IMG/VR virus record: IMGVR_UViG_3300036766_000416 | Span: 114,610-178,609 of that record | Strand: one strand, 5' to 3' | DNA length: 64,000 nucleotides | DNA from: a virus | Shown here: one piece after another, positions 21 to 59,585 of the stretch | Numbering within the stretch: position 1 is the stretch's first letter | Layout: every line of letters begins with the position of its first letter | Position numbers and translations under genes: made by a program | The notes under the pieces: model-generated | Seen by the model: the letters and a program-made list of their open reading frames with translations, nothing else | What the model was told of the DNA's origin: nothing | Databases searched by the model: none

Positions 21-1178
21 ATGATGAAAAGTTGGCAATGTGGTTTCGAAATTGATGAACTGAAAACCTTGGAGGCCTTCTACGAGCCATACAATCGCTA
101 TGCCCTGTCACCGTTCGGAAAATTTAAGAAGAATGACATCGCCACCAAGCTGGACAACAAGGCCTTCAACCAGGTCAACGACCGAGACGGGCACGTCGAG
201 GCAGCTTGGGTGCGTGAAAGGTCAAAGGTACCCAGCAAGATCACGATGCACGGCAAAACCATCATTGGTGAGAAACTCAAGGGTGACGTGACCCTTTCAA
301 GACTCTGTGGTGACCCAGAGACCTTAGAGACCTCACTGATGCATGAGGGGTACACGATGGACAACTGCTGGCTCCTGTCCTACGGTGGGGACACCGCGAT
401 CTGCCGGCTCGCTGAACGCCTGGGGTTCAAGAAAATTGGCTACAAGGTCACCTCGTTTGCAGAGATCATGGCGGTCTATTTTCGGGACAGTGACCTCAGT
501 TTGGCACCCAGGAACCACCCAGTGGTGAACAAGGCTGACTTGGTGGGTATGGCAAAGATTGCGAGCATAGGGTCCACGTTGCCCTTGTTGATTCTGCAGA
601 AAATCCAACTCAAAGGTCTCCAATACACCAATCACTACAGCAACTACAACACCAAGAATGCCTGGTCTGCATTGGCCCTTCGAGGTTACTCAGCGGACGC
701 CGCGTTCATCACGAAGCCCGCTGAGATGAATGACAAGTGGCATGAGGCCCACACACACGAACACTTCGAACTTCAAGATACCCCACTCTACGCACAGTTC
801 CCCGAAGTCAGAAAACTACTTACGTTTTTAGACGGGGAGTGCCACCGAGTCAGATTTATGCGTCTCGCCCCTGGTGGGGGAGAACTTACTCGTCATACAG
901 ACCAGGTAGACCCCGACGCTGGCAACTCACTAGGCGCGCTGGCTCGCTTGCACTTCCCTCTCAAAACCAACAAGGACGTCCTATTCAGCACATGGAATGG
1001 TGACGACCAAGAGGAACGCTATCACTTTGGATTCGGTGAGTGTTGGGTCATTGATACTCGGAAACCTCATATGGCTGTCAATGGGGGCACAGAGGAACGG
1101 ATACACCTCGTGGTTGACGTGATTGTGACACCTAAAATCGAACGCATGATCACCGAAGGACTCTCTATTCGAGCCTAA
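21..1178 (+). CDS. Fusion of a putative GNAT-like N-terminal domain and a C-terminal Asp/Asn beta-hydroxylase-type 2OG-Fe(II) oxygenase
   Basis: C-terminus has RVRFMRL..RHTD (HxD) ...RLHFPL...ECWVIDTRKPH..VNGG.EERIHLVVD, typical of the AspH-like jelly-roll. N-terminal LAERLGFKKIG resembles a GNAT motif (weaker). Confidence 0.6.
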   Translation: MMKSWQCGFEIDELKTLEAFYEPYNRYALSPFGKFKKNDIATKLDNKAFNQVNDRDGHVEAAWVRERSKVPSKITMHGKTIIGEKLKGDVTLSRLCGDPETLETSLMHEGYTMDNCWLLSYGGDTAICRLAERLGFKKIGYKVTSFAEIMAVYFRDSDLSLAPRNHPVVNKADLVGMAKIASIGSTLPLLILQKIQLKGLQYTNHYSNYNTKNAWSALALRGYSADAAFITKPAEMNDKWHEAHTHEHFELQDTPLYAQFPEVRKLLTFLDGECHRVRFMRLAPGGGELTRHTDQVDPDAGNSLGALARLHFPLKTNKDVLFSTWNGDDQEERYHFGFGECWVIDTRKPHMAVNGGTEERIHLVVDVIVTPKIERMITEGLSIRA

Positions 1179-1196
1179 TCAACCACTTAGCACCCC

Positions 1197-1225
1197 TTGA
1201 CACCTGGACCTGGTTGTGATACCCT
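1197..1225 (+). promoter_or_regulatory. sigma70-type early promoter
   Basis: TTGACA (1197-1202), 17 nt spacer, extended TG, TACCCT (1220-1225). Confidence 0.6.
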
Positions 1226-1264
1226 TAGTATGACAGTTGAAGAAACACCAGGAGCCTTTATATT

Positions 1265-4200
1265 ATGAGTACCCTCAGCAAACTTACAAAGATTGTCAGA
1301 CACAATTACAAAAAGTCTCTGGCCAGGGAACCCAAGGTTCTTCTCTATGTCTATCAGATGATGGACCACAAACCCCTGAATTCTGCCGACGGGATATACA
1401 GTCTCAAGGTGGGGGACCATTGGTGTATCTTCAGGGACATTTATGCGGCCGCCAAAAGGCGAATTCGAGAGGGGTTGGGGTGCCACAAAGCTGCCCTGGA
1501 TGACGGTCGAATCAAGATTCTCGCAGTATTCGATGTGACTGTGTATGCCAAGCACCACAAGAAATATAAAAAACATGGCAAGATCGACCTCAATGTTCAC
1601 AAAGTTATTCCAGGTCACTATCGAGATGACAATTTCCATGTCAACGATATTGGTGAAGTTCTAGCTCTCATCACCAAAGAAATCAACCGCTATTCGACAG
1701 CACAACAGAAGGACACCCTCAAACTCAGCCCTCTCCAACACGATCTGCTCAGAGATTCCATTGTGGCCTACAAGGCAGGGAAACTCCGACAGTTGTTCGC
1801 CGCGGCAGCACGAATCGGAAAAACCTGTATGGCTCTGGCTCTCATGCGGGAACTGAACCTTCCGTTTATGGTGTTCGCCAGCTACGTCACGACTTCACTC
1901 AATTCGATGATTCAGGATGCCGCAAAGTTCGCGCAATTCCACAACATCCTTGTGGTCGATACGCGAAAAAATGACTACCAACAACTCATTAGTGAAGGTC
2001 TTGCGGCGGGTAAGCAAATCGTGGCGCTCCTGAGTATGTGCAATGGTGATGATCGACAGGAACGCATCGACTTTCTCTTCAAGCTGAACCTTCTTCAAAC
2101 GTTGGTGGTCGACGAGGCAGACTATGGGTCACATCAACCGACGCAAACCGAACCACTTCAAGCAGCGGTCTCTGTAAACGAATTGGTGATCCTGATGTCA
2201 GGGACCAATCCAGAACGGTCTATGAGTACCTGGAAAATCGACTTCCAGCGACACATCAGTAATCAAGACATGCAAGTGGCCAGAGGGCTGTACCTCAGAG
2301 GTGAGTACAAACAGTCACCGAGCAAGATGCTCTTCTTCAAGAAGGACTACAGCATTCTCGGCGCGGTTGTTCCGGCTCGCTACTACCAAATGACCCTCAA
2401 GAAACTTCAGGACCTCGCCAAACTCCAGCACCCAGAGGCCTTCACGGATGATGAACTGTGGGGTTCGTGGATCAAGTGGATGAAGAACCCAGCGAAGGCC
2501 AGTGGCCCACTGTCCATGTTCTTTGAGTCAGTCTTTGAGGGCAAGTGGAACCTCGAAGAAGTCAACACCAGGTATCAGTTTAGTATCACCCCAGGTGGAC
2601 AACAAGTGGTGATGGTCTGGCTGCCTTCCTGCACCGAGACCGAGAAGATGAACTTGTTCGCTGAGATTGCTCAAAAAAGTCTCAAAAACTGGGACGTGAT
2701 TCCGCTCTCTGGTGGAGTGACGACCCCCGATGGCACCAGGATGACAGGCGCGAAGGCTGAACGCCATGTGAATGAACGTATTGCCTCAGCCAAATTCAAT
2801 GGCAACCGCAACGTCATGATCATCTCAGCGATCATGGGTGCCCGCTCATTCGGGATCAAGGAAATCACTGAGGTCTATCTGTGCTACGATGAGGGAGCGG
2901 TGGGTTCGACGATTCAGAAAATGTCACGAGCCCTCACACCGTTCTTCGACGGGACTGAGAAACTTGCTCGCATTGTCTCGTGCAGCTTCGACCCTAACCG
3001 TGACGAGAAATTCGACCCACTGGTCCTTGAGTGTGCCAAGCACACCAAGGCTCTGTATGGGATACCCCTGGTCAAGGCCATCAAACTCGTGCTACGCACG
3101 TCAGACTTCTTTGTGATGACCCAGGATGGACCGAAACCCTATGAAATCTCCGCGTACCTTGAGGGTGTGTTGGCCCGCAAGAGTACCGCGCGGGTGTTCG
3201 GGAAAATTTTCAAGCTGGAAAACATTCCCACTGACCTGTTGGAGTCTATCGCCAGGGTCTCTGGAAAAATCGGCAAGACCACGAAACAAGAAGTTGCTCA
3301 ACGAGGCAAGACGCTCGCTGAGGTCCTCAAGAAATCACCAGGAACCAAGAATACTCCGGCTCAAGACAAAATCTGGAAAGACATCCACAACGGCCTGGTC
3401 TACATCGCGTCCAACATCGATTGGATCATGTGCTTCGGTCGCCGTGGGGCCTCATTGGTGGAGTGCCTGGACATTCTCGATAAGGAAACTCAGAGGACCC
3501 GGGATGGCCTCGCTGAGGATTATGGTATCCCCTATGCGGACCTCGCACGATTGCTTCGGTGCGACGTGAGTAGCCATGACCTCCTGGAGTTGGAGTCCTA
3601 CGCGGGCACTGGGACCGCTAGCAACCGCACAAAATTTTCTATCGACCCAGTGGTGATGGAGATGTTGGCGATCATTCCTGAGAAGGATTGGCAGTCGTCT
3701 ACCAAGACCTTTGCGGACCTGGCGATGGCAGGAGGTCAGTTTATTGTTGGGCTGGTGCGAATGCTGAGAACCTACGGACACTCAGACGAGAACATCAGGA
3801 GTCGTGTGTTCGGATTCGACACCTGCAAGCACAGAATTCTCGCTGCTAAATACCACTGTCCAGACCTCATCGGAACCTTTGAGGTCAAAACAATCGAGGA
3901 GTTGATGAAGATGACCCAGAAATTTGACGTGATCGTTGGGAACCCACCGTTTCAACAAAATAGCAAAATCGCAAAAGACAGCGGCACCAATAAACTCTGG
4001 AATAAATTTACAAAACTCGCTATCGATCTTTCACCGGGGGGATATGTGACATACATCACCCCCCAATCATGGTTGGTGGGAAACAGGACATTCGACCTGC
4101 TCACCAGTAAGAAATCAATAAGTGTTAATACCGAAATCTCTCATTATTTTCAGGGTGTTAATAGTTCTTTCTGCTCGTGGGTTCTGTCAAACAAAGACAA

Positions 4201-4795
4201 GGACGACGCAGAAACTGGGAAGATATTTGTGAACGGCAAACCACTTGACAGTTCCCTAGGTTTGATACCCAAAGACAGATCACACAACGGTCTTTCTTTA
4301 GTTGCTAAGTTTTTTTCAAAGAAAGATAAATTTTCATTCGACCGACTTTATAATCATGGATCAACAGCCATTAAAAACGACCCAACACTACTAGGCAAAA
4401 AAAGTCAACGATACCAACACCCAATTACATTCACCGCCTCAAAACAAGGCATTGCGTGGAGTCGCATACCAAGCCCAGTGCAGGGGAAAAAGAAAGTGAT
4501 TATATTTCGTAGCGCCCCTATAAAACCCACGTATTCAACTAATGGTGTTGGTGCTGACGCCTTCTTTAAGTTAGTGACCTCGAAAGAGGAAGGAAAGAAT
4601 ATGGTTGAAATTTTCAACTCAAAACTCTACTCATACATTTTCAAAACCACACTCTATAGTGGATTTTTCTCTATGTCAGTGTTTAACCACATTCCCTATC
4701 TCGATTACACCAGGTCCTGGAGTGACGCTGAAATCTATGAGCACTTCAACATCACCAAGAAAGAGCAAGCACACATTGAAGCCTACCTTGCGTGA
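1265..4795 (+). CDS. Single-polypeptide restriction-modification-like enzyme: putative T5orf172/GIY-YIG-like N-domain, SF2 helicase, N6-adenine MTase, target-recognition domain
   Basis: Walker A-like AARIGKT, LVVDEAD, MSGT; later AMAGGQF (SAM motif I) and FDVIVGNPPF (motif IV); AGGAG RBS upstream. Confidence 0.7.
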   Translation: MSTLSKLTKIVRHNYKKSLAREPKVLLYVYQMMDHKPLNSADGIYSLKVGDHWCIFRDIYAAAKRRIREGLGCHKAALDDGRIKILAVFDVTVYAKHHKKYKKHGKIDLNVHKVIPGHYRDDNFHVNDIGEVLALITKEINRYSTAQQKDTLKLSPLQHDLLRDSIVAYKAGKLRQLFAAAARIGKTCMALALMRELNLPFMVFASYVTTSLNSMIQDAAKFAQFHNILVVDTRKNDYQQLISEGLAAGKQIVALLSMCNGDDRQERIDFLFKLNLLQTLVVDEADYGSHQPTQTEPLQAAVSVNELVILMSGTNPERSMSTWKIDFQRHISNQDMQVARGLYLRGEYKQSPSKMLFFKKDYSILGAVVPARYYQMTLKKLQDLAKLQHPEAFTDDELWGSWIKWMKNPAKASGPLSMFFESVFEGKWNLEEVNTRYQFSITPGGQQVVMVWLPSCTETEKMNLFAEIAQKSLKNWDVIPLSGGVTTPDGTRMTGAKAERHVNERIASAKFNGNRNVMIISAIMGARSFGIKEITEVYLCYDEGAVGSTIQKMSRALTPFFDGTEKLARIVSCSFDPNRDEKFDPLVLECAKHTKALYGIPLVKAIKLVLRTSDFFVMTQDGPKPYEISAYLEGVLARKSTARVFGKIFKLENIPTDLLESIARVSGKIGKTTKQEVAQRGKTLAEVLKKSPGTKNTPAQDKIWKDIHNGLVYIASNIDWIMCFGRRGASLVECLDILDKETQRTRDGLAEDYGIPYADLARLLRCDVSSHDLLELESYAGTGTASNRTKFSIDPVVMEMLAIIPEKDWQSSTKTFADLAMAGGQFIVGLVRMLRTYGHSDENIRSRVFGFDTCKHRILAAKYHCPDLIGTFEVKTIEELMKMTQKFDVIVGNPPFQQNSKIAKDSGTNKLWNKFTKLAIDLSPGGYVTYITPQSWLVGNRTFDLLTSKKSISVNTEISHYFQGVNSSFCSWVLSNKDKDDAETGKIFVNGKPLDSSLGLIPKDRSHNGLSLVAKFFSKKDKFSFDRLYNHGSTAIKNDPTLLGKKSQRYQHPITFTASKQGIAWSRIPSPVQGKKKVIIFRSAPIKPTYSTNGVGADAFFKLVTSKEEGKNMVEIFNSKLYSYIFKTTLYSGFFSMSVFNHIPYLDYTRSWSDAEIYEHFNITKKEQAHIEAYLA

Positions 4796-4796
4796 A

Positions 4797-5216
4797 GTGA
4801 TTGAACACGTTCGCAACAGGTCCTACATGTCAGGGGTCCAACGGGATGCCCTGCGCGTCAAGGCCACTGGTGAAATCTTCACACCGACACCACTGGTCCA
4901 GGAACTTCTGGACCAACTCCCCACTGAGGTGTTCAGTGAGCCCTCCGAGACCTTCCTAGACCCTTCCTGTGGTGACGGACAGTTTCTCGGCGAGGTCCTG
5001 ATCCGCAAAATGGAGCATGGTAGCACGTTCGCTGAGGCCCTCAACACGATCTATGGTGTCGAACTGATGCCCGACAACAGGGCCCTCTGTGTTGAACGGC
5101 TCCTGTGTGGTCACGAAGAATACCGGGACCTCGTGGAGTCGCACATCGTCTGCGCTGATGCCTTGAGCTATGATTACTCGTTCGGTAAACCTGTGGGTCT
5201 GGAGAACCTGTGCTGA
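4797..5216 (+). CDS. N-6 DNA methylase-like protein containing only the SAM-binding half (probable GTG start 4797)
   Basis: GEIFTP and FLDPSCGDGQF motifs, IYGVELM, IVCADAL; no NPPY/F motif before the stop. Confidence 0.7.
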   Translation: MIEHVRNRSYMSGVQRDALRVKATGEIFTPTPLVQELLDQLPTEVFSEPSETFLDPSCGDGQFLGEVLIRKMEHGSTFAEALNTIYGVELMPDNRALCVERLLCGHEEYRDLVESHIVCADALSYDYSFGKPVGLENLC

Positions 5217-5785
5217 TCATTGGGAACCCTCCATTCGGCAAGAGGGCCTCTCTGGCGATAGAGTTTTTCAATCGAGCCACCCGGCTCTCCGATGTGATTG
5301 CGTTCGTGGTGCCAGTACAGTTCAGGAAGTGGTCGGTTCAGTCCAAACTCAACCCGGAAATGCGACTGGTCCTAGACAAGGATGTTCCTGAACACACCTT
5401 CGACGGGATACGCTGCTGTTTGCAAATCTGGAAACGGGGAGGGTCGGGTCCCGATCTACGACTGAAAGCGGCACCCACGATCACCCACAAAGACTTTTTC
5501 ATGTGGCAGTATAATAATACAGAAAAGGCCAAGCGAGTGTTCGGCATCACGTTCGATTTCGCGGTACCCCGTCAAGGGTACGCAGATTACACCAGGCGTG
5601 AGACAGACTACAGGGCCTGTGAACTGACAACCCAATGGATACTCTTTCGAGCACCCAATCCAGTGGTCTTGTCGAGACTCAAGCAATTAGATTTTGAGGC
5701 ACTTGCAAAGAAGAATACGACGATCCCTGGGTTCGGCAAAGCAGACGTGGTGAGATTGTATCATGAGGTGTATGGTGACAACTGA
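5210..5785 (+). CDS. Amino-methyltransferase catalytic half plus TRD-like region
   Basis: Begins directly with LIIGNPPF (motif IV), then IAFVVP; no SAM-binding motif I; its frame is closed by a stop at 5186. Confidence 0.65.
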   Translation: MLIIGNPPFGKRASLAIEFFNRATRLSDVIAFVVPVQFRKWSVQSKLNPEMRLVLDKDVPEHTFDGIRCCLQIWKRGGSGPDLRLKAAPTITHKDFFMWQYNNTEKAKRVFGITFDFAVPRQGYADYTRRETDYRACELTTQWILFRAPNPVVLSRLKQLDFEALAKKNTTIPGFGKADVVRLYHEVYGDN

Positions 5786-6692
5786 ACGAGACATCGATCA
5801 CGCGCTAGACCTGATTACCCCGGTCCAGTTCGACCAGGGTCTCTATTGGAAACGCGACGACCACTTCCAACCTTTCGGGCCCCTACATGTCAATGGCGGA
5901 AAAGTCCGACAGGCGATCATGGTCTTTCGGTCCAAGCTGGAAGAGCTTCGTGACCCTGAGTGCTACGACAATGGCGTGGTCACCGCCGCCTCAGTGTACT
6001 CCCCACAATCCGCCAACATCGCCAAGGTCGCGCAGCACTATGGGGTGAAGTGTATCTCGACAGTAGGGGGAACCACTGAAGCAGGACTCCGTAAGCACCA
6101 TATGATGCGGCTCACGCGGCACTACGGGTCCGAGATTCGTATTGTCGCAGGGCACGGCATGACCGCGGTGATCCACAGCCGGATGCACGACATTGCGAAG
6201 CAGCTTCGGTACCTCCCAATCGAAATGGGTGAACTGATGGAGGAGAACCCCACTGCAATCTTTGAGTCAACCGCTCGCCAAGTCCAGAACCTACCCGATG
6301 ACCTGGACAACCTCATCGTGCCCACTGGTGTTGCCATCCAGTTGACGGGTATCCTGCGGGGCCTCAGGGAGTTTGACAAAAAAGTTGGACGGGTCGTGTG
6401 TGTCTGTGTGGGACCGACCAGAGAGAAGCAACTGAGCCACTACCTCCGTGACATTTACAAGGAAGAGGTCTCGCGGTACCACAGTGTCGAGATGGTTGCC
6501 CACAAGGCTCCGTATTCGAAACCCTACGAGGTCAAGGTCAACGGTGAGCATATCGATGACCTCTATGAGGGCAAGGCCTTTGACTGGATGACCAAGAACG
6601 TGGATTACCGTAACCAGAAAACCTGCTTCTGGGTCGTCGGCAAGAGGCCTAGAGTGACCGATGTTGATACCATCATCCAGGACATGCTATGA
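5772..6692 (+). CDS. PLP-dependent fold-type II enzyme (ACC deaminase/D-cysteine desulfhydrase-like)
   Basis: LYWKRDD..NGGKVRQ (PLP lysine region), IVPTGVAIQLTG, DDLYEGKAF. The start could be 5763 or 5772. Confidence 0.75.
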   Translation: MVTTERDIDHALDLITPVQFDQGLYWKRDDHFQPFGPLHVNGGKVRQAIMVFRSKLEELRDPECYDNGVVTAASVYSPQSANIAKVAQHYGVKCISTVGGTTEAGLRKHHMMRLTRHYGSEIRIVAGHGMTAVIHSRMHDIAKQLRYLPIEMGELMEENPTAIFESTARQVQNLPDDLDNLIVPTGVAIQLTGILRGLREFDKKVGRVVCVCVGPTREKQLSHYLRDIYKEEVSRYHSVEMVAHKAPYSKPYEVKVNGEHIDDLYEGKAFDWMTKNVDYRNQKTCFWVVGKRPRVTDVDTIIQDML

Positions 6693-8269
6693 ACTACTTC
6701 TATGAACGGGGCACCGAACTACTCGAATCACCCGTCAACAAAACGTTCGACGAACTGTTGGTCATGAGCACCGAGGAATTTCGACAATGGGTCATCGACC
6801 TTCGCAAGACCGTCGTGTACCTCTGGGATACCAAGGGACAGCCGCCACGGGTGGGCTACGACGAAGCAGGGATCATCAAACAGTTTCGGGAACTAGAGCC
6901 CTTCATCACCGAGACCTTCGAGCAGCTTGACGAGTGCACCGGTGAACGGAACGTGATCCGCAACACCTCGAACCTTGGGAACGCGGTGAACCAGTGGTTT
7001 CCCACGATGATGAAGGTGCGTATCAACTACACGAAGGACGTCGACGCAGGGAAATCTATCTACGATTTTTTCGCTAAGGACTCTTTGCTCGATACGTTCG
7101 TGACCTATGCGTCAAGACATTTTCACAGAGACTCGTTCTACAACTTCTCGCTGACCTTGCAGGCCTCTGACACCACACGGTACGGTCAGGTCCCTGTGGC
7201 GACAACGGGTCTGGAGTGGGTCCGACAATTCGAGACTGATGGGTACCGCAACCGTGGACAGTGGGATTACTGGCTCGAAACGATAGCTGCCACGAAAACT
7301 TATACGGGCTACAACGAAGTTCTCAAAGACCGTCAGTACCTCCAGGTGTCTCAGCAAGAATTGGAGACCCTAGGTGACCTGGTACCCGCCCGATGCACAA
7401 CCAACATCAACAGGTCCAAAGGTGACCTCTGTGCCATCAGGGTCTATGAGACCGGGCAGAAGGTGTTTCCAGTAGGCCTCAAGGCATTCCGTATGAGCTT
7501 CTGCCAGTACGCGGTCCAATGGCCTCCATTGACAGCCAAGCATATCATTGAACGGTTTACAAACGAGTGGAAATCTGAACCCACAATATATTGTTGGGAC
7601 CCTAGTGCTGGGTGGGGCGGGCGATTGCTCGGTGCTTTGGCAGTCGAGGATAAGCGTCACATCACCTATCTGGCCAATGACCCCAACAGCGATCATACAA
7701 CAACTCTAGGGCGGACTAAGTATCACGAGGTATACGACTTCTATTGCCAGCACGTTCCTAAAGGTGGAATTTTTGGTGCGGAGCACACTGAATTCAAATT
7801 TTGGCAACTGGGGTCGGAGCTGATGCACCGTGACCCCGGCTTTTGTGAATATAAAGGAAAAATATCTCTGGTGTTTACCAGCCCACCATATTTTTGCAAA
7901 GAAGCCTACTCGGAGGACCCCTCACAGTCCTACAAGAAATTCTCGCAGTACGATCAGTGGCGCGATGGGTTTCTCAAGAGGACCTTGGAGACTGCTGTTG
8001 AGTGGTTGCGACCCGGTGGGTATCTGGCTTGGAATATAGCGAACGCCACATTTAGCGGAGATAGATTGCCCTTAGAAAATGATTCCAATGTTATCCTAAA
8101 ATCGCTTGGTATGGAGTACGTGCAGGTGCTGAAAATGTCCCTTGCTCAAACCCCGGGCGGCAATAGACTAGACAAAGTTACAGGACTTCCAAAAACAGAG
8201 CATTCCTGCAAAGTGGGAGGGTTGTGGTTGAAATGGGAACCTATTCTAATATGGCGCAAACCGAAATAA
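6689..8269 (+). CDS. DNA amino-methyltransferase-like protein (SPPY type) with a long N-terminal extension
   Basis: WDPSAGWGGRLLG (SAM motif), VFTSPPYF..E.YSED, WLRPGGYLAWNIA; ATGA overlap with the PLP gene. Confidence 0.7.
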   Translation: MNYFYERGTELLESPVNKTFDELLVMSTEEFRQWVIDLRKTVVYLWDTKGQPPRVGYDEAGIIKQFRELEPFITETFEQLDECTGERNVIRNTSNLGNAVNQWFPTMMKVRINYTKDVDAGKSIYDFFAKDSLLDTFVTYASRHFHRDSFYNFSLTLQASDTTRYGQVPVATTGLEWVRQFETDGYRNRGQWDYWLETIAATKTYTGYNEVLKDRQYLQVSQQELETLGDLVPARCTTNINRSKGDLCAIRVYETGQKVFPVGLKAFRMSFCQYAVQWPPLTAKHIIERFTNEWKSEPTIYCWDPSAGWGGRLLGALAVEDKRHITYLANDPNSDHTTTLGRTKYHEVYDFYCQHVPKGGIFGAEHTEFKFWQLGSELMHRDPGFCEYKGKISLVFTSPPYFCKEAYSEDPSQSYKKFSQYDQWRDGFLKRTLETAVEWLRPGGYLAWNIANATFSGDRLPLENDSNVILKSLGMEYVQVLKMSLAQTPGGNRLDKVTGLPKTEHSCKVGGLWLKWEPILIWRKPK

Positions 8270-8855
8270 CTTCAGTACATTTCCATCCTTTATGATGCCT
8301 CCTTTCCCCGCGAGATGTTGACCACATGTGGCTAACATTCAGCTTATTGGTTCTACAGAACCCCTTCAGGTTTGTTATTTGAAAAGTACTCCCGGCAGGT
8401 GATGTCACCTCCCAGTGTTTATCTCTCTTTCCGCGTATAACTTCAGCAACTTTCCTAACATGTTCTGGGGATTGTGGACCCGTTTTTATTCCTCTATTCC
8501 AGGGAATTCTTCTCTTGAACCTCGCAATAGTCTCTGGCGAGTGTCTGAAACCAAGTTGTCCCTCTCCGCCGTAGGGCATATTATAGCCCTTGCCAGTAGA
8601 GTAGTGTGAATCATAAAGACGAATAAAATAACCCTCCATAATGTTCAACACAAAATCTTTATCAGGTGACTCATACTCAATAGTCCAATCGAATCCAGAC
8701 GCACCATATTTCTTGATGGCTTGATGAAACACAACCCCCTGAGCTTTTGACTTTGCTTCCCATAGATGGATATACTTTCGTTTAGGCCAAGCAGAGTCGT
8801 ACCCGATATAGACTTTTCCGTTGGTCTTGTTTGTCGCTTTATAAATGACAGGCAT
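8241..8855 (-). CDS. Free-standing GIY-YIG homing endonuclease
   Basis: VIYKATNKTNGKVYIG, GYNM..GG, NUMOD3-like PWNRG, C-terminal NL..FCR..L...KGW.C. Confidence 0.85.
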   Translation of the reverse strand: MPVIYKATNKTNGKVYIGYDSAWPKRKYIHLWEAKSKAQGVVFHQAIKKYGASGFDWTIEYESPDKDFVLNIMEGYFIRLYDSHYSTGKGYNMPYGGEGQLGFRHSPETIARFKRRIPWNRGIKTGPQSPEHVRKVAEVIRGKRDKHWEVTSPAGSTFQITNLKGFCRTNKLNVSHMWSTSRGERRHHKGWKCTEVISVCAILE

Positions 8856-8982: not shown

Positions 8983-9246
8983 ATGAACAAAGCACTCATC
9001 CCTGTCAATTCAGTTGTCACCCACCTCAGCAAGTATGGCATGAAGAAACAAGCCGGACTCGTTGTGGCTGATGCCGGGACCAAGTATGGTCGGCAGTATG
9101 TTTGGGTGTCGTGGGTCGCCCCTAAGACTCTCGTGGTCATGCAGACCGCCTTTTGGACCCAGGTTTTGAGGGTTTCCGACCAGACTGCCCAAGAATTTAT
9201 TAAACAGACAGCAAAATCAATGAGTTACGCCGAGAATAGGGCTTGA
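8983..9246 (+). CDS. Hypothetical protein, probably leaderless
   Basis: 87 aa ORF between two promoters; no SD. Confidence 0.6.
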   Translation: MNKALIPVNSVVTHLSKYGMKKQAGLVVADAGTKYGRQYVWVSWVAPKTLVVMQTAFWTQVLRVSDQTAQEFIKQTAKSMSYAENRA

Positions 9247-9270
9247 CATTCCGGTAGGATATGATAGAAT
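9243..9270 (+). promoter_or_regulatory. sigma70-type early promoter
   Basis: TTGACA, 16 nt, TG-extended TAGAAT. Confidence 0.65.
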
Positions 9271-58902: not shown

Positions 58903-59585
58903 GTGTGAGTGAGTTAAAGGTGCTTGATTATGGTCATGTGAGACTCGTGGACTCTATGGGTTCCGATTTGTCCATCGTGCGATCTGCACGAGTGAGTTAT
59001 AATGCGGTGTGGCGCACAGGTGAGGACGAAGGCAAAGATGCCAAGCTCATTCAGTACCTTATCAAGAATCGTCACACCACACCATTTGAATCTGTGACAT
59101 TTACGTTCGATGTGAAAGCACCGATATTTGTATTTCGTCAGTGGCACAGACACAGAACATGGTCCTATAACGAGATGTCTGCAAGGTACACAGAACTCCC
59201 CGAAGAGTTCTACATTCCAGAGGCTAAGGAAATCACTACGCAATCAGCGAGCAATAAACAAATGCGAACGGATGAGTTGCATCCCGATGGTGAAGTGATG
59301 CGCGAGGTGATGCGACTCAATAATGAGGCGGCCTTTGTATCTTATCGTCAACTCCTACACATGGGATGCCCGCGAGAACTTGCGCGATCAGTGTTACCTG
59401 TTGCGACCTATAGTCAGATGTTCGGCACCGTCAATTTGTGGAACCTGTTTCATTTCCTGAATCTCAGAACACACGCACACGCGCAGTTTGAAATACGTGT
59501 ATATGCGCTCGCAATGCTTGAACTCATTCGACCGATTTGTCCCGTCGCGGTTACTGCATGGGAAGAACTCAACATAAAAAAGTAA
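58899..59585 (+). CDS. thyX: Flavin-dependent thymidylate synthase (start 58899)
   Basis: ARVSY, HTTPFE, RQWHRHRTWSYNEMSARY, ARSVLP, HAQFEIR. Confidence 0.95.
   Translation: MSVSELKVLDYGHVRLVDSMGSDLSIVRSARVSYNAVWRTGEDEGKDAKLIQYLIKNRHTTPFESVTFTFDVKAPIFVFRQWHRHRTWSYNEMSARYTELPEEFYIPEAKEITTQSASNKQMRTDELHPDGEVMREVMRLNNEAAFVSYRQLLHMGCPRELARSVLPVATYSQMFGTVNLWNLFHFLNLRTHAHAQFEIRVYALAMLELIRPICPVAVTAWEELNIKK

Follow-up and report, generated by a model that had tools for sequence, protein, structure and literature searches.

Known pathways and the locus under study

To our knowledge, all characterised amino-acid-type hypermodifications of DNA start from 5-hydroxymethyl-pyrimidines. In the thymidine pathways of phages ViI, M6 and PaMx11, 5-hydroxymethyldeoxyuridine (5-hmdU) is acted upon by 5-HMUDK and then by an amino-acid:DNA transferase (AADT), after which a pyridoxal phosphate (PLP) decarboxylase, a radical S-adenosylmethionine (SAM) enzyme, an FAD lyase or an acetyltransferase follows (PMC8989533, PMC5889632). 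Two of the PLP enzymes, ViI gp226 and M6 gp52, have been purified and are decarboxylases of O-seryl- and C-glycinyl-thymidine in DNA, and PaMx11 gp48 acylates the amine of aminomethyl-deoxyuridine (PMC8989533). The subject of this report is a locus in a 64,000-nucleotide stretch of viral DNA (hereafter the window), which forms the last 64 kb of the complete 178,609-bp IMG/VR record IMGVR_UViG_3300036766_000416, a genome with terminal repeats. Three genes of this locus, g1, g5 and g6, are proposed here to constitute one multi-step nucleic-acid hypermodification module, most likely directed at DNA, of a new type that is entered through a methyltransferase-fold protein with an xPPY motif; we put the probability of this reading at roughly 0.6. 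A route with a methyltransferase-fold entry enzyme was not found in the literature searched and would be a new variant, and the same literature held nothing relevant on aminocarboxypropyl or aminopropyl modification of DNA in phages.

By gene content the genome is T4-like, with a split gp43 DNA polymerase, gp46/47-like genes, a peptide deformylase and cobS. Its gp43 polymerase is only ~43% identical to cyanophage enzymes, a megablast comparison of the locus with cultured phages gave no match, and none of the cultured phages carries a close g6 or g1. The locus comprises six adjacent open reading frames (ORFs), g1 to g6, all of them present on the plus strand at 21-8269 of the window as the initial annotation had described. 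Consecutive genes overlap by 7 nt (g3/g4), 23 nt (g4/g5) and 4 nt (g5/g6), and a gap of 86 nt separates g1 from g2. The three genes of the proposed module are the following.

g1, 21 to 1178, plus strand: GNAT-fold domain (aa 10-160) joined to an Fe(II)/2-oxoglutarate (2OG) oxygenase of the AspH/proline-hydroxylase type (aa 170-371); HTD motif at nt 894-902
g5, 5763 to 6692, plus strand: fold-type-II PLP enzyme; catalytic Lys47 in NGGKVRQ, nt 5892-5912
g6, 6689 to 8269, plus strand: 526 aa; N-terminal domain (aa 1-290) followed by a class-I SAM-dependent transferase domain with motif I WDPSAGWGG (aa 303, nt 7595-7621), motif II D331, TSPPYF (TSPPY aa 397) at nt 7877-7894 and EAYSEDP at nt 7901-7921

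Absence of the known entry enzymes

The initial annotation had recognised no aGPT-Pplase, dU-hydroxymethylase, DpdA or TET at the locus, and this statement holds for the genome as a whole. More specifically, the complete 178.6-kb sequence gave no match at E<=1 to the ThyA family (PF00303), to Tet_JBP (PF12851) or to the HMUD2 5-hmdU kinase and AADT models (PF18747, PF18724), the search having covered these and no other kinase or aGPT-Pplase clade models; nor was a TGT/DpdA gene found in it. The flavin-dependent thymidylate synthase ThyX is present (window 58941-59546, genome 173550-174155, E 8.5e-55), and the phage therefore makes ordinary dTMP. Because the known entry enzymes are absent, the amino-acid-like substrate presumably required by g5 and g1 must come from another transferase, for which g6 is the only candidate that is constant, linked and fused.

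Relatives of g5, g1 and g6

For comparison, 83 IMG/VR loci were fetched via g6 and g5 and their ORFs were clustered. L-numbers below denote phage loci fetched for comparison, mostly from IMG/VR, and P-numbers denote protein cluster representatives. Fold assignments rest on AF2 models, and Z scores are those of structure comparison (VIA) with PDB entries.

Judged by its sequence, g5 is a homologue of the PLP decarboxylases whose substrates are amino-acid adducts of phage DNA. It matches PALP (E 1.4e-12) and phrog_3650 (E 2e-38), and BLASTP aligns it with ViI gp226 at 28% identity over 233 aa (E 7e-24). In this alignment Lys47 falls on Lys92 of gp226 (INGSKLRQ), and the lysine is invariant in both g5-family alignments examined. 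The 348 phage records matched by tblastn with g5 are mainly ViI-like Ackermannviridae, and a scan of IMG/VR with a g5-type PLP profile yielded 80 loci. Among the IMG/VR loci, about 45 distant PLP relatives (25-32% identity) adjoin an AADT gene, as such relatives almost always do; their other neighbours are often ParB together with 5mYOX (a TET/JBP-type thymine dioxygenase), or ThyA-like and kinase genes, and some adjoin a radical SAM gene as in M6. Within the g5 clade proper (40-91% identity) AADT never stands alongside, and the neighbours are g1, a free GNAT gene and g6 in several arrangements. These include a compact block g1-g5-GNAT-g6 (L092-L094), the order g1-SLOG-vWA-g5-x-g6 (L090, L109) and the order g1-vWA-g5-GNAT-(SLOG)-g6 (L004, L005). 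A distant lineage whose g6 is 42% identical (L103/L104) has a small methyltransferase gene, g5, g6 and a glutamine-synthetase-like gene in succession. In L104 the last of these is of the amidoligase type (L104:10500-11597), and the gene upstream of the PLP gene encodes a 221-aa PF01555 DNA methylase (L104:7277-7942); both may be further tailoring steps. A g5-like PLP domain (43% identity) also occurs in P0245, a 565-aa protein from an ENA contig annotated with the polysaccharide-export domains SLBB and Poly_export, which could be an artefact of gene calling or else an unrelated fusion.

The oxygenase half of g1 matches Pfam Asp_Arg_Hydrox (PF05118, E 1.4e-12), and both halves are placed by a model of high confidence (pLDDT 94.3). 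Residues 170-371 adopt the AspH/proline-hydroxylase fold (Z 15.7 to 4p7x, Z 14.8 to AspH), with free-proline hydroxylases as the nearest structures, and H292-x-D294, both candidate distal histidines (H350 and H362) and R360 are invariant across 34 homologues. Residues 10-160 adopt the GNAT fold, aligning with 2pc1 (Z 13.2, root-mean-square deviation 3.2, 144 residues aligned) and with many other GNATs. The g1 protein itself has no Pfam GNAT match; a related Atlas cluster carries PF00583 in 71% of members. The only notable homologue of g1 in a cultured phage is gp4 of Mycobacterium phage LilMcDreamy, where the gene order is gp1 (ParB), gp2 (a weak Tet_JBP match), gp3 (AADT; Pfam model ADDT PF18724, E 2.7e-12) and then gp4. 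The gp1-gp4 region is of the kind described as ParB-dependent thymine-dioxygenase hypermodification clusters (PMC13229309). In the same cluster, gp2 (L086, NC_051582.1, 855-1787) is annotated as a queuine tRNA-ribosyltransferase; its sole Pfam match is the weak one to Tet_JBP, it is 38-45% identical to genes flanked in IMG/VR contigs by ParB and AADT genes, and on these grounds it is probably a mis-annotated ParB-dependent thymine dioxygenase.

The third protein, g6, belongs to a family of 1289 homologues (cluster representatives) that are 52-84% identical over their full length, and it is a core gene of this T4-like lineage. Motif I, Asp331 and TSPPY are invariant in 35 homologues. SPPY is typical of N4-cytosine enzymes, and the xPPY motif positions exocyclic base amines. 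At the sequence level g6 matches PF01555 and the PADLOC Type II methyltransferase model MTase_II (E 3.6e-9), and its profile found a single weak match among PDB sequences (2zie, E 0.007). The best folds for its model (pLDDT 85.7) are those of the N2-methylguanosine (m2G) amino-methyltransferases TrmN, Trm11 and Trm14 (Z 16.0-14.8), which are nearly tied with generic methyltransferases; a Foldseek search of the PDB returned generic class-I methyltransferases only. The N-terminal 290 residues gave no fold match in the whole-model searches, which were dominated by the methyltransferase domain.

Fusion of the three enzyme types

All three domain types have been fused independently elsewhere, which strongly indicates a common pathway for g1, g5 and g6. 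A search among longer relatives of g5 revealed P0246, a 779-aa protein that combines ParB_N, a methyltransferase-like domain and PALP. Its PLP domain sits inside the methyltransferase domain, between motifs I-II and CPPY, and the whole is collinear with gp1 and gp2 of Mycobacterium phage Vincenzo. In Vincenzo, at the same place as the LilMcDreamy cluster, gp1 carries ParB and a methyltransferase-like domain (SCPPYGDLECYNDD) and gp2 is a g5-type PLP enzyme; the ParB of gp1 is 59% identical to that of LilMcDreamy, and no AADT was found in the Vincenzo genome.

An exhaustive phmmer search for such composite proteins gave 2420 representatives at E<=1e-30. The best 150 were examined for architecture: most are 720-880 aa long, and in more than 70 of them a single alignment sets in ahead of motif I, takes in the PLP domain and continues past CPPY. 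Database names for the family are generic ('DNA modification methylase', 'ACC deaminase-like'), and the contexts are phage-like. Profile-profile comparison (hhalign) ties both parts of the composite to the locus. The g5 clade aligns with the PLP part with a probability of 100% (E 4.4e-44, 252 columns), and the g6 family aligns with the methyltransferase part with a probability of 96.3% (E 2e-9, 206 columns). The latter alignment spans motif IV and the next 100 residues, including a shared (S/C)PPYxxxExYSxDP, and the g6 profile matches motif IV of more than 100 composite members. BLASTP of g6 against Vincenzo gp1 aligned the motif IV region alone, the relationship being significant only by profile-profile comparison.

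The remaining enzyme type is found in the same chains. When the g1 profile was run with hmmsearch against 156 composite proteins, 8 proved to carry a g1-type GNAT-cupin at full length (E 1e-74 to 1e-96). Five of these have it nested, along with the PLP domain, within the methyltransferase domain, in two it follows methyltransferase and PLP domains, and in one it follows a methyltransferase without a PLP domain. One representative, P0275, is a verified ORF of 1175 aa directly upstream of terminase and portal genes. A profile of the free GNAT (c19) found no fused copy among the composite proteins. Because its parts are separate genes and no Pfam ParB_N match was found in g1 to g6, the window holds a split relative of the composite family and not a member of it.

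The variable slot before g6

In relatives of the locus the backbone consists of gp47-like, gp46-like and peptide deformylase genes, a variable slot and g6, followed in some by a large peptidase gene and cobS. Contents of the slot were tallied over the 64 loci in which the deformylase and g6 are both visible.

g1 alone: 19 of 64 loci
Free 143-aa GNAT alone: 13 of 64 loci
Short cupin-only g1 with GNAT: 12 of 64 loci
g1 with c27: 7 of 64 loci
c27 with c53: 3 of 64 loci
Rarer mixtures: 4 of 64 loci
Nothing: 6 of 64 loci

Counted by type, 55 of these slots have a GNAT domain before g6, 42 have a cupin and 13 have a PLP-like gene. The c27 proteins of the list are a family of 245-275 aa with no Pfam match, found in the slot before g6 in L012, L029 (9152-9973), L031, L036, L046, L052, L057, L069, L071, L074 and L075. 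Against them the PLP profile gave no match with hmmsearch, and an hhalign comparison with the g5 family gave E 4.9e-5 with the conserved catalytic GSKxR lysine aligned, which makes c27 a probable divergent fold-II PLP enzyme. No family could be assigned to the slot genes c53 and c69 or to an 87-aa ORF after g6. Recurrent neighbours of the PLP gene in the slot are SLOG (YAcAr) and DUF4326 proteins of nucleotide-binding type and also a vWA protein (phrog_7371), examples being L004:6387-6767, L071:9345-9992 and L090:6433-6798.

Conservation of the neighbourhood across T4-like phages, which the initial annotation had put forward as a check on a six-gene pathway, is thus borne out in part: g1, g5 and g6 recur next to one another in divergent T4-like relatives, and g2, g3 and g4 are missing from nearly all of them. 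Its view that the product goes beyond a methyl group divides along the same line. Such a product is likely for g1, g5 and g6, because they co-occur, have relatives in hypermodification clusters and are fused elsewhere; it is not indicated for g2 to g4.

Proposed mechanism and alternatives

In the scheme that we infer, which extends to DNA as the target, the acp (3-amino-3-carboxypropyl) moiety, the order of the steps and the product, g6 would bind SAM and transfer its acp group to an exocyclic base amine, giving a base with a free alpha-amino acid. The PLP enzyme g5 would then remove the carboxylate of the adduct to leave an aminopropyl side chain, the oxygenase half of g1 would hydroxylate that side chain, and the GNAT half would acylate the amine, much as PaMx11 gp48 does on aminomethyl-deoxyuridine. 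Relatives without a PLP gene would retain the carboxylate.

Several observations weigh against this proposal. Most g6-bearing relatives have no g5, six slots are empty, and in one lineage g5 lies beside cobS, far from g6 in the genome. The slot is a hyperplastic region by gp46/47 and peptide deformylase, so that adjacency alone is weak evidence, and the related loci share descent and are not phylogenetically independent. In the GNAT part of g1 the sole near-invariant glycine is G97, in the beta4-alpha3 loop, and there is no full Q/RxxGxG/A acetyl-CoA motif. The transferase itself is without the ParB domain that the fused proteins carry, its fold is nearest to tRNA m2G methyltransferases (though the rows are nearly tied), and with a normal motif I and motif IV it could be a plain N4-methylcytosine or N6-methyladenine methyltransferase; sequence does not distinguish acp transfer from methyl transfer by g6.

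One alternative is that the slot contains orphan anti-restriction methyltransferases (g2, g3/g4 and g6) together with unrelated metabolic genes for free amino acids or polyamines, and that methylation is the only modification made. The high variability of the slot between deformylase and g6, the recent insertion of g2 to g4, the match of g4 and g2 to ordinary Type II methyltransferases and the structural proximity of the g1 oxygenase to free-proline hydroxylases are all in keeping with it, and aquatic T4-like phages commonly carry 2OG oxygenases. Methylation alone would nevertheless leave unexplained that many independent sequences join methyltransferase-like, PLP and GNAT-cupin domains in one polypeptide, some of them nested, that members of the PLP family elsewhere go with AADT clusters and that a g1 homologue stands inside a thymidine hypermodification cluster, and we consider it improbable. 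Much the same low standing is given to a module that works on RNA, either tRNA or rRNA of phage or host. TYW2 (acp transfer) and TYW5 (2OG hydroxylation) form a comparable pair on tRNA in wybutosine synthesis, and the catalytic domain of g6 has TrmN, Trm11 and Trm14 as its nearest structures. The near tie of those rows with generic methyltransferases weakens this resemblance, and DNA is favoured as the target because the proven substrates of the PLP family, those of the characterised g5 relatives, are in DNA, because the fused relatives carry ParB_N and adjoin terminase genes, and because g6 matches DNA methyltransferase models (PF01555, PADLOC MTase_II).

Two further alternatives keep a hypermodification and redistribute the chemistry. 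If module and target are as proposed, the alkyl transfer could be carried out by the PLP enzyme, through an aldimine with SAM held by the methyltransferase and a gamma-replacement onto the base, or the adduct could be something other than acp. Fold-II PLP enzymes typically perform beta- or gamma-replacement, a PLP-dependent acp transfer from SAM is known from nucleoside-antibiotic biosynthesis (Mur24), and in the composite proteins the PLP domain interrupts the Rossmann fold that binds SAM, at a point between motifs II and IV, which suggests two active sites working on one SAM. The only characterised members of the family, ViI gp226 and M6 gp52, are however decarboxylases (PMC8989533). Moreover, most g6-bearing phages have no PLP gene, so that g6 must be able to work alone, and this version is rated as unlikely. 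A Mom-like route, in which g1 builds an acyl-derived adduct on an adenine first marked by a methyltransferase and the PLP enzyme has a side role, is very improbable: phage Mu's Mom has a GNAT fold and forms N6-carbamoylmethyl-adenine, and g1 joins a GNAT fold to an iron oxygenase, but the linkage of g1 to an amino-acid transferase in LilMcDreamy and its fusion to a PLP amino-acid enzyme point to a substrate of amino-acid type. A module of g1, g5 and g6 with g6 as the entry enzyme is thus the reading we prefer.

Inserted methyltransferase genes and flanking features

The three genes between g1 and g5 are conventional in character and have a separate history.

g2, 1265 to 4795, plus strand: SF2/DEAD-type ATPase fused to a gamma-class NPPF DNA methyltransferase; Walker A ARIGKT (aa 182, nt 1808-1825), DEAD (aa 283, nt 2105-2122), methyltransferase motif I DLAMAGGQF (aa 818, nt 3716-3742), NPPF (aa 893, nt 3938-3952)
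g3, 4827 to 5216, plus strand: N-terminal half of a gamma-class methyltransferase, with its start at ATG 4827 or ATG 4737; TPxxL, SAM-binding motif I DPSCGDGQF (nt 4959-4985), motif III (nt 5151-5165)
g4, 5210 to 5785, plus strand: C-terminal two thirds of a Type II N6-adenine methyltransferase, including the target-recognition part; begins VLIIGNPPF, motif IV NPPF (nt 5222-5236), GTG start with GGAG upstream

The g2 protein matches Pfam Eco57I (E 2.4e-13), phrog_3689 (E 8e-26) and a PADLOC Type II methyltransferase (E 6e-11), and a search of its profile against PDB sequences found none. It is present in 0 of about 90 related loci. Its ATPase and methyltransferase parts correspond to three adjacent hypothetical genes of Synechococcus phage S-CAM7 (L089, 4593-8008), and the ATPase-methyltransferase module is common to distant T4-like phages. 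By its motifs and matches, g2 is probably a conventional N6-adenine methyltransferase and a lineage-specific insert.

Together g3 and g4 are the two halves, in two frames, of one gamma-class methyltransferase. The g3 product matches Pfam N6_Mtase (E 3e-5) and phrog_4376 (E 4e-25), and the g4 product matches PADLOC MTase_II (E 2e-28, profile positions 96-291 of 298) and phrog_5172 (E 4e-32), a family common as an orphan N6-adenine methyltransferase in rV5-like and other phages. Among the related loci a g4-type methyltransferase is found only in L003, and g3 in none. The L003 enzyme is unsplit and 276 aa long; g4 is 71% identical to its residues 86-276, and g3 shows no similarity to its N-terminus. 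DNA homology between the window and L003 begins at nt 5212, which is the g3|g4 junction. Because homology to the nearest relative starts exactly at this junction, we conclude that the g2-g4 block was brought into the slot between g1 and g6 by recombination and that these genes are not obligatory pathway steps. The view of the locus as a six-gene unit accordingly finds no support, its inserted members belonging to ordinary phage and Type II methyltransferase families. A sequencing frameshift as the cause of the g3/g4 split is disfavoured by the homology breakpoint at nt 5212 and by the unrelated N-terminal half; a one-base error at the junction is still possible. The g2 and g3/g4 enzymes would add ordinary anti-restriction methylation. 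A small methyltransferase gene lies directly upstream of the PLP gene in three contexts, namely the window, L003 and L104.

At the other end of the locus, a GIY-YIG homing-endonuclease gene (phrog_314, E 8e-22) occupies 8241-8855 on the minus strand of the window, sharing 29 nt with the 3' end of g6. This gene and the recombination junction at g3|g4 suggest that mobile-element traffic shaped the slot. No T4-type late promoter was found in the locus, and sigma-70-like and terminator-like sites occur there at chance level. The best sigma-70-like promoter match of the region (11/12 with an extended TG) lies at 9243-9270 of the window and stops 7 nt before the listed GTG start of an 820-aa peptidase gene; because it ends so close upstream, the true start of the peptidase gene may be further downstream.

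Significance and comparison with known systems

A more far-reaching possibility, put forward only tentatively, is that the locus represents a widespread and undescribed class of phage DNA hypermodification in which a methyltransferase-fold enzyme moves acp from SAM to an exocyclic base amine and the adduct is then reshaped by decarboxylation (PLP enzyme), hydroxylation (2OG enzyme) and acylation (GNAT enzyme). If so, new bases such as N-(acyl-amino-hydroxypropyl)-cytosine, -adenine or -guanine would occur in a large clade of aquatic T4-like phages, and the related single-protein versions would do likewise in many other phages. With a methyltransferase-like enzyme at its start, such a route would bring in a novel entry chemistry and probably modified bases that are new as well, and it would apparently be widespread, with more than 1200 representatives of the g6 family and more than 2400 of the composite family. 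Such bases would affect how the DNA of environmental phages behaves towards restriction, CRISPR and sequencing. Natural single-chain fusions of about 1200 aa with all the activities would offer a compact means of derivatising DNA in a site-directed way and an immediate, cheap experimental handle.

Orphan phage N6-adenine and N4-cytosine methyltransferases (Type II gamma and beta; phrog_5172, Eco57I) account for g2 and g3/g4 by motif and profile, although g3/g4 differs in being in two ORFs split at a recombination junction. The g6 protein shares with them its motif I and SPPY motif IV, but is linked or fused to PLP and GNAT-oxygenase enzymes that are of no use to a plain methyltransferase. The composite ParB_N-methyltransferase-like[PLP](GNAT-cupin) proteins (P0246, P0275, P0300 and Vincenzo gp1 with gp2) resemble the locus in having all three domain types in phage contexts without AADT. 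They differ from it in that g6 has another N-terminal domain, of 290 aa, in place of ParB_N and in that the parts are separate genes in the window; the composite family is likewise without an assigned function.

Class-I SAM enzymes are able to append an alpha-amino-acid moiety by passing on the acp group of SAM. Microcin C maturation offers the same trio of enzyme types as the locus: MccD is a SAM-dependent acp transferase, the PLP domain of MccE decarboxylates and its second domain is an acetyltransferase (PMC11350588). The order of acp transfer, PLP decarboxylation to an aminopropyl group and N-acetylation is plausibly identical. This is an analogy of mechanism only, since no specific homology of MccD or MccE to proteins of the locus was found, MccD (5fcd) being only a generic structural match to g6 (Z 13.2); the microcin substrate is a peptidyl-adenylate phosphoramidate, and the decarboxylase of MccE belongs to another PLP fold group.

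With the ViI, M6 and PaMx11 pathways the locus shares the PLP family of g5 and the tailoring of an appended amino acid by decarboxylation and acetylation, and the g1 homologue of LilMcDreamy stands within a cluster of that type. The phage described here differs in having no source of 5-hmdU, no 5-hmdU kinase and no amino-acid:DNA transferase, and in the xPPY methyltransferase-fold protein that is linked to the PLP enzyme instead; this makes an exocyclic amine, as opposed to C5 of thymine, the probable target. It differs also in g1, which would add to the decarboxylation and acylation known from the thymidine pathways a further tailoring step by a 2OG hydroxylase of amino-acid type.

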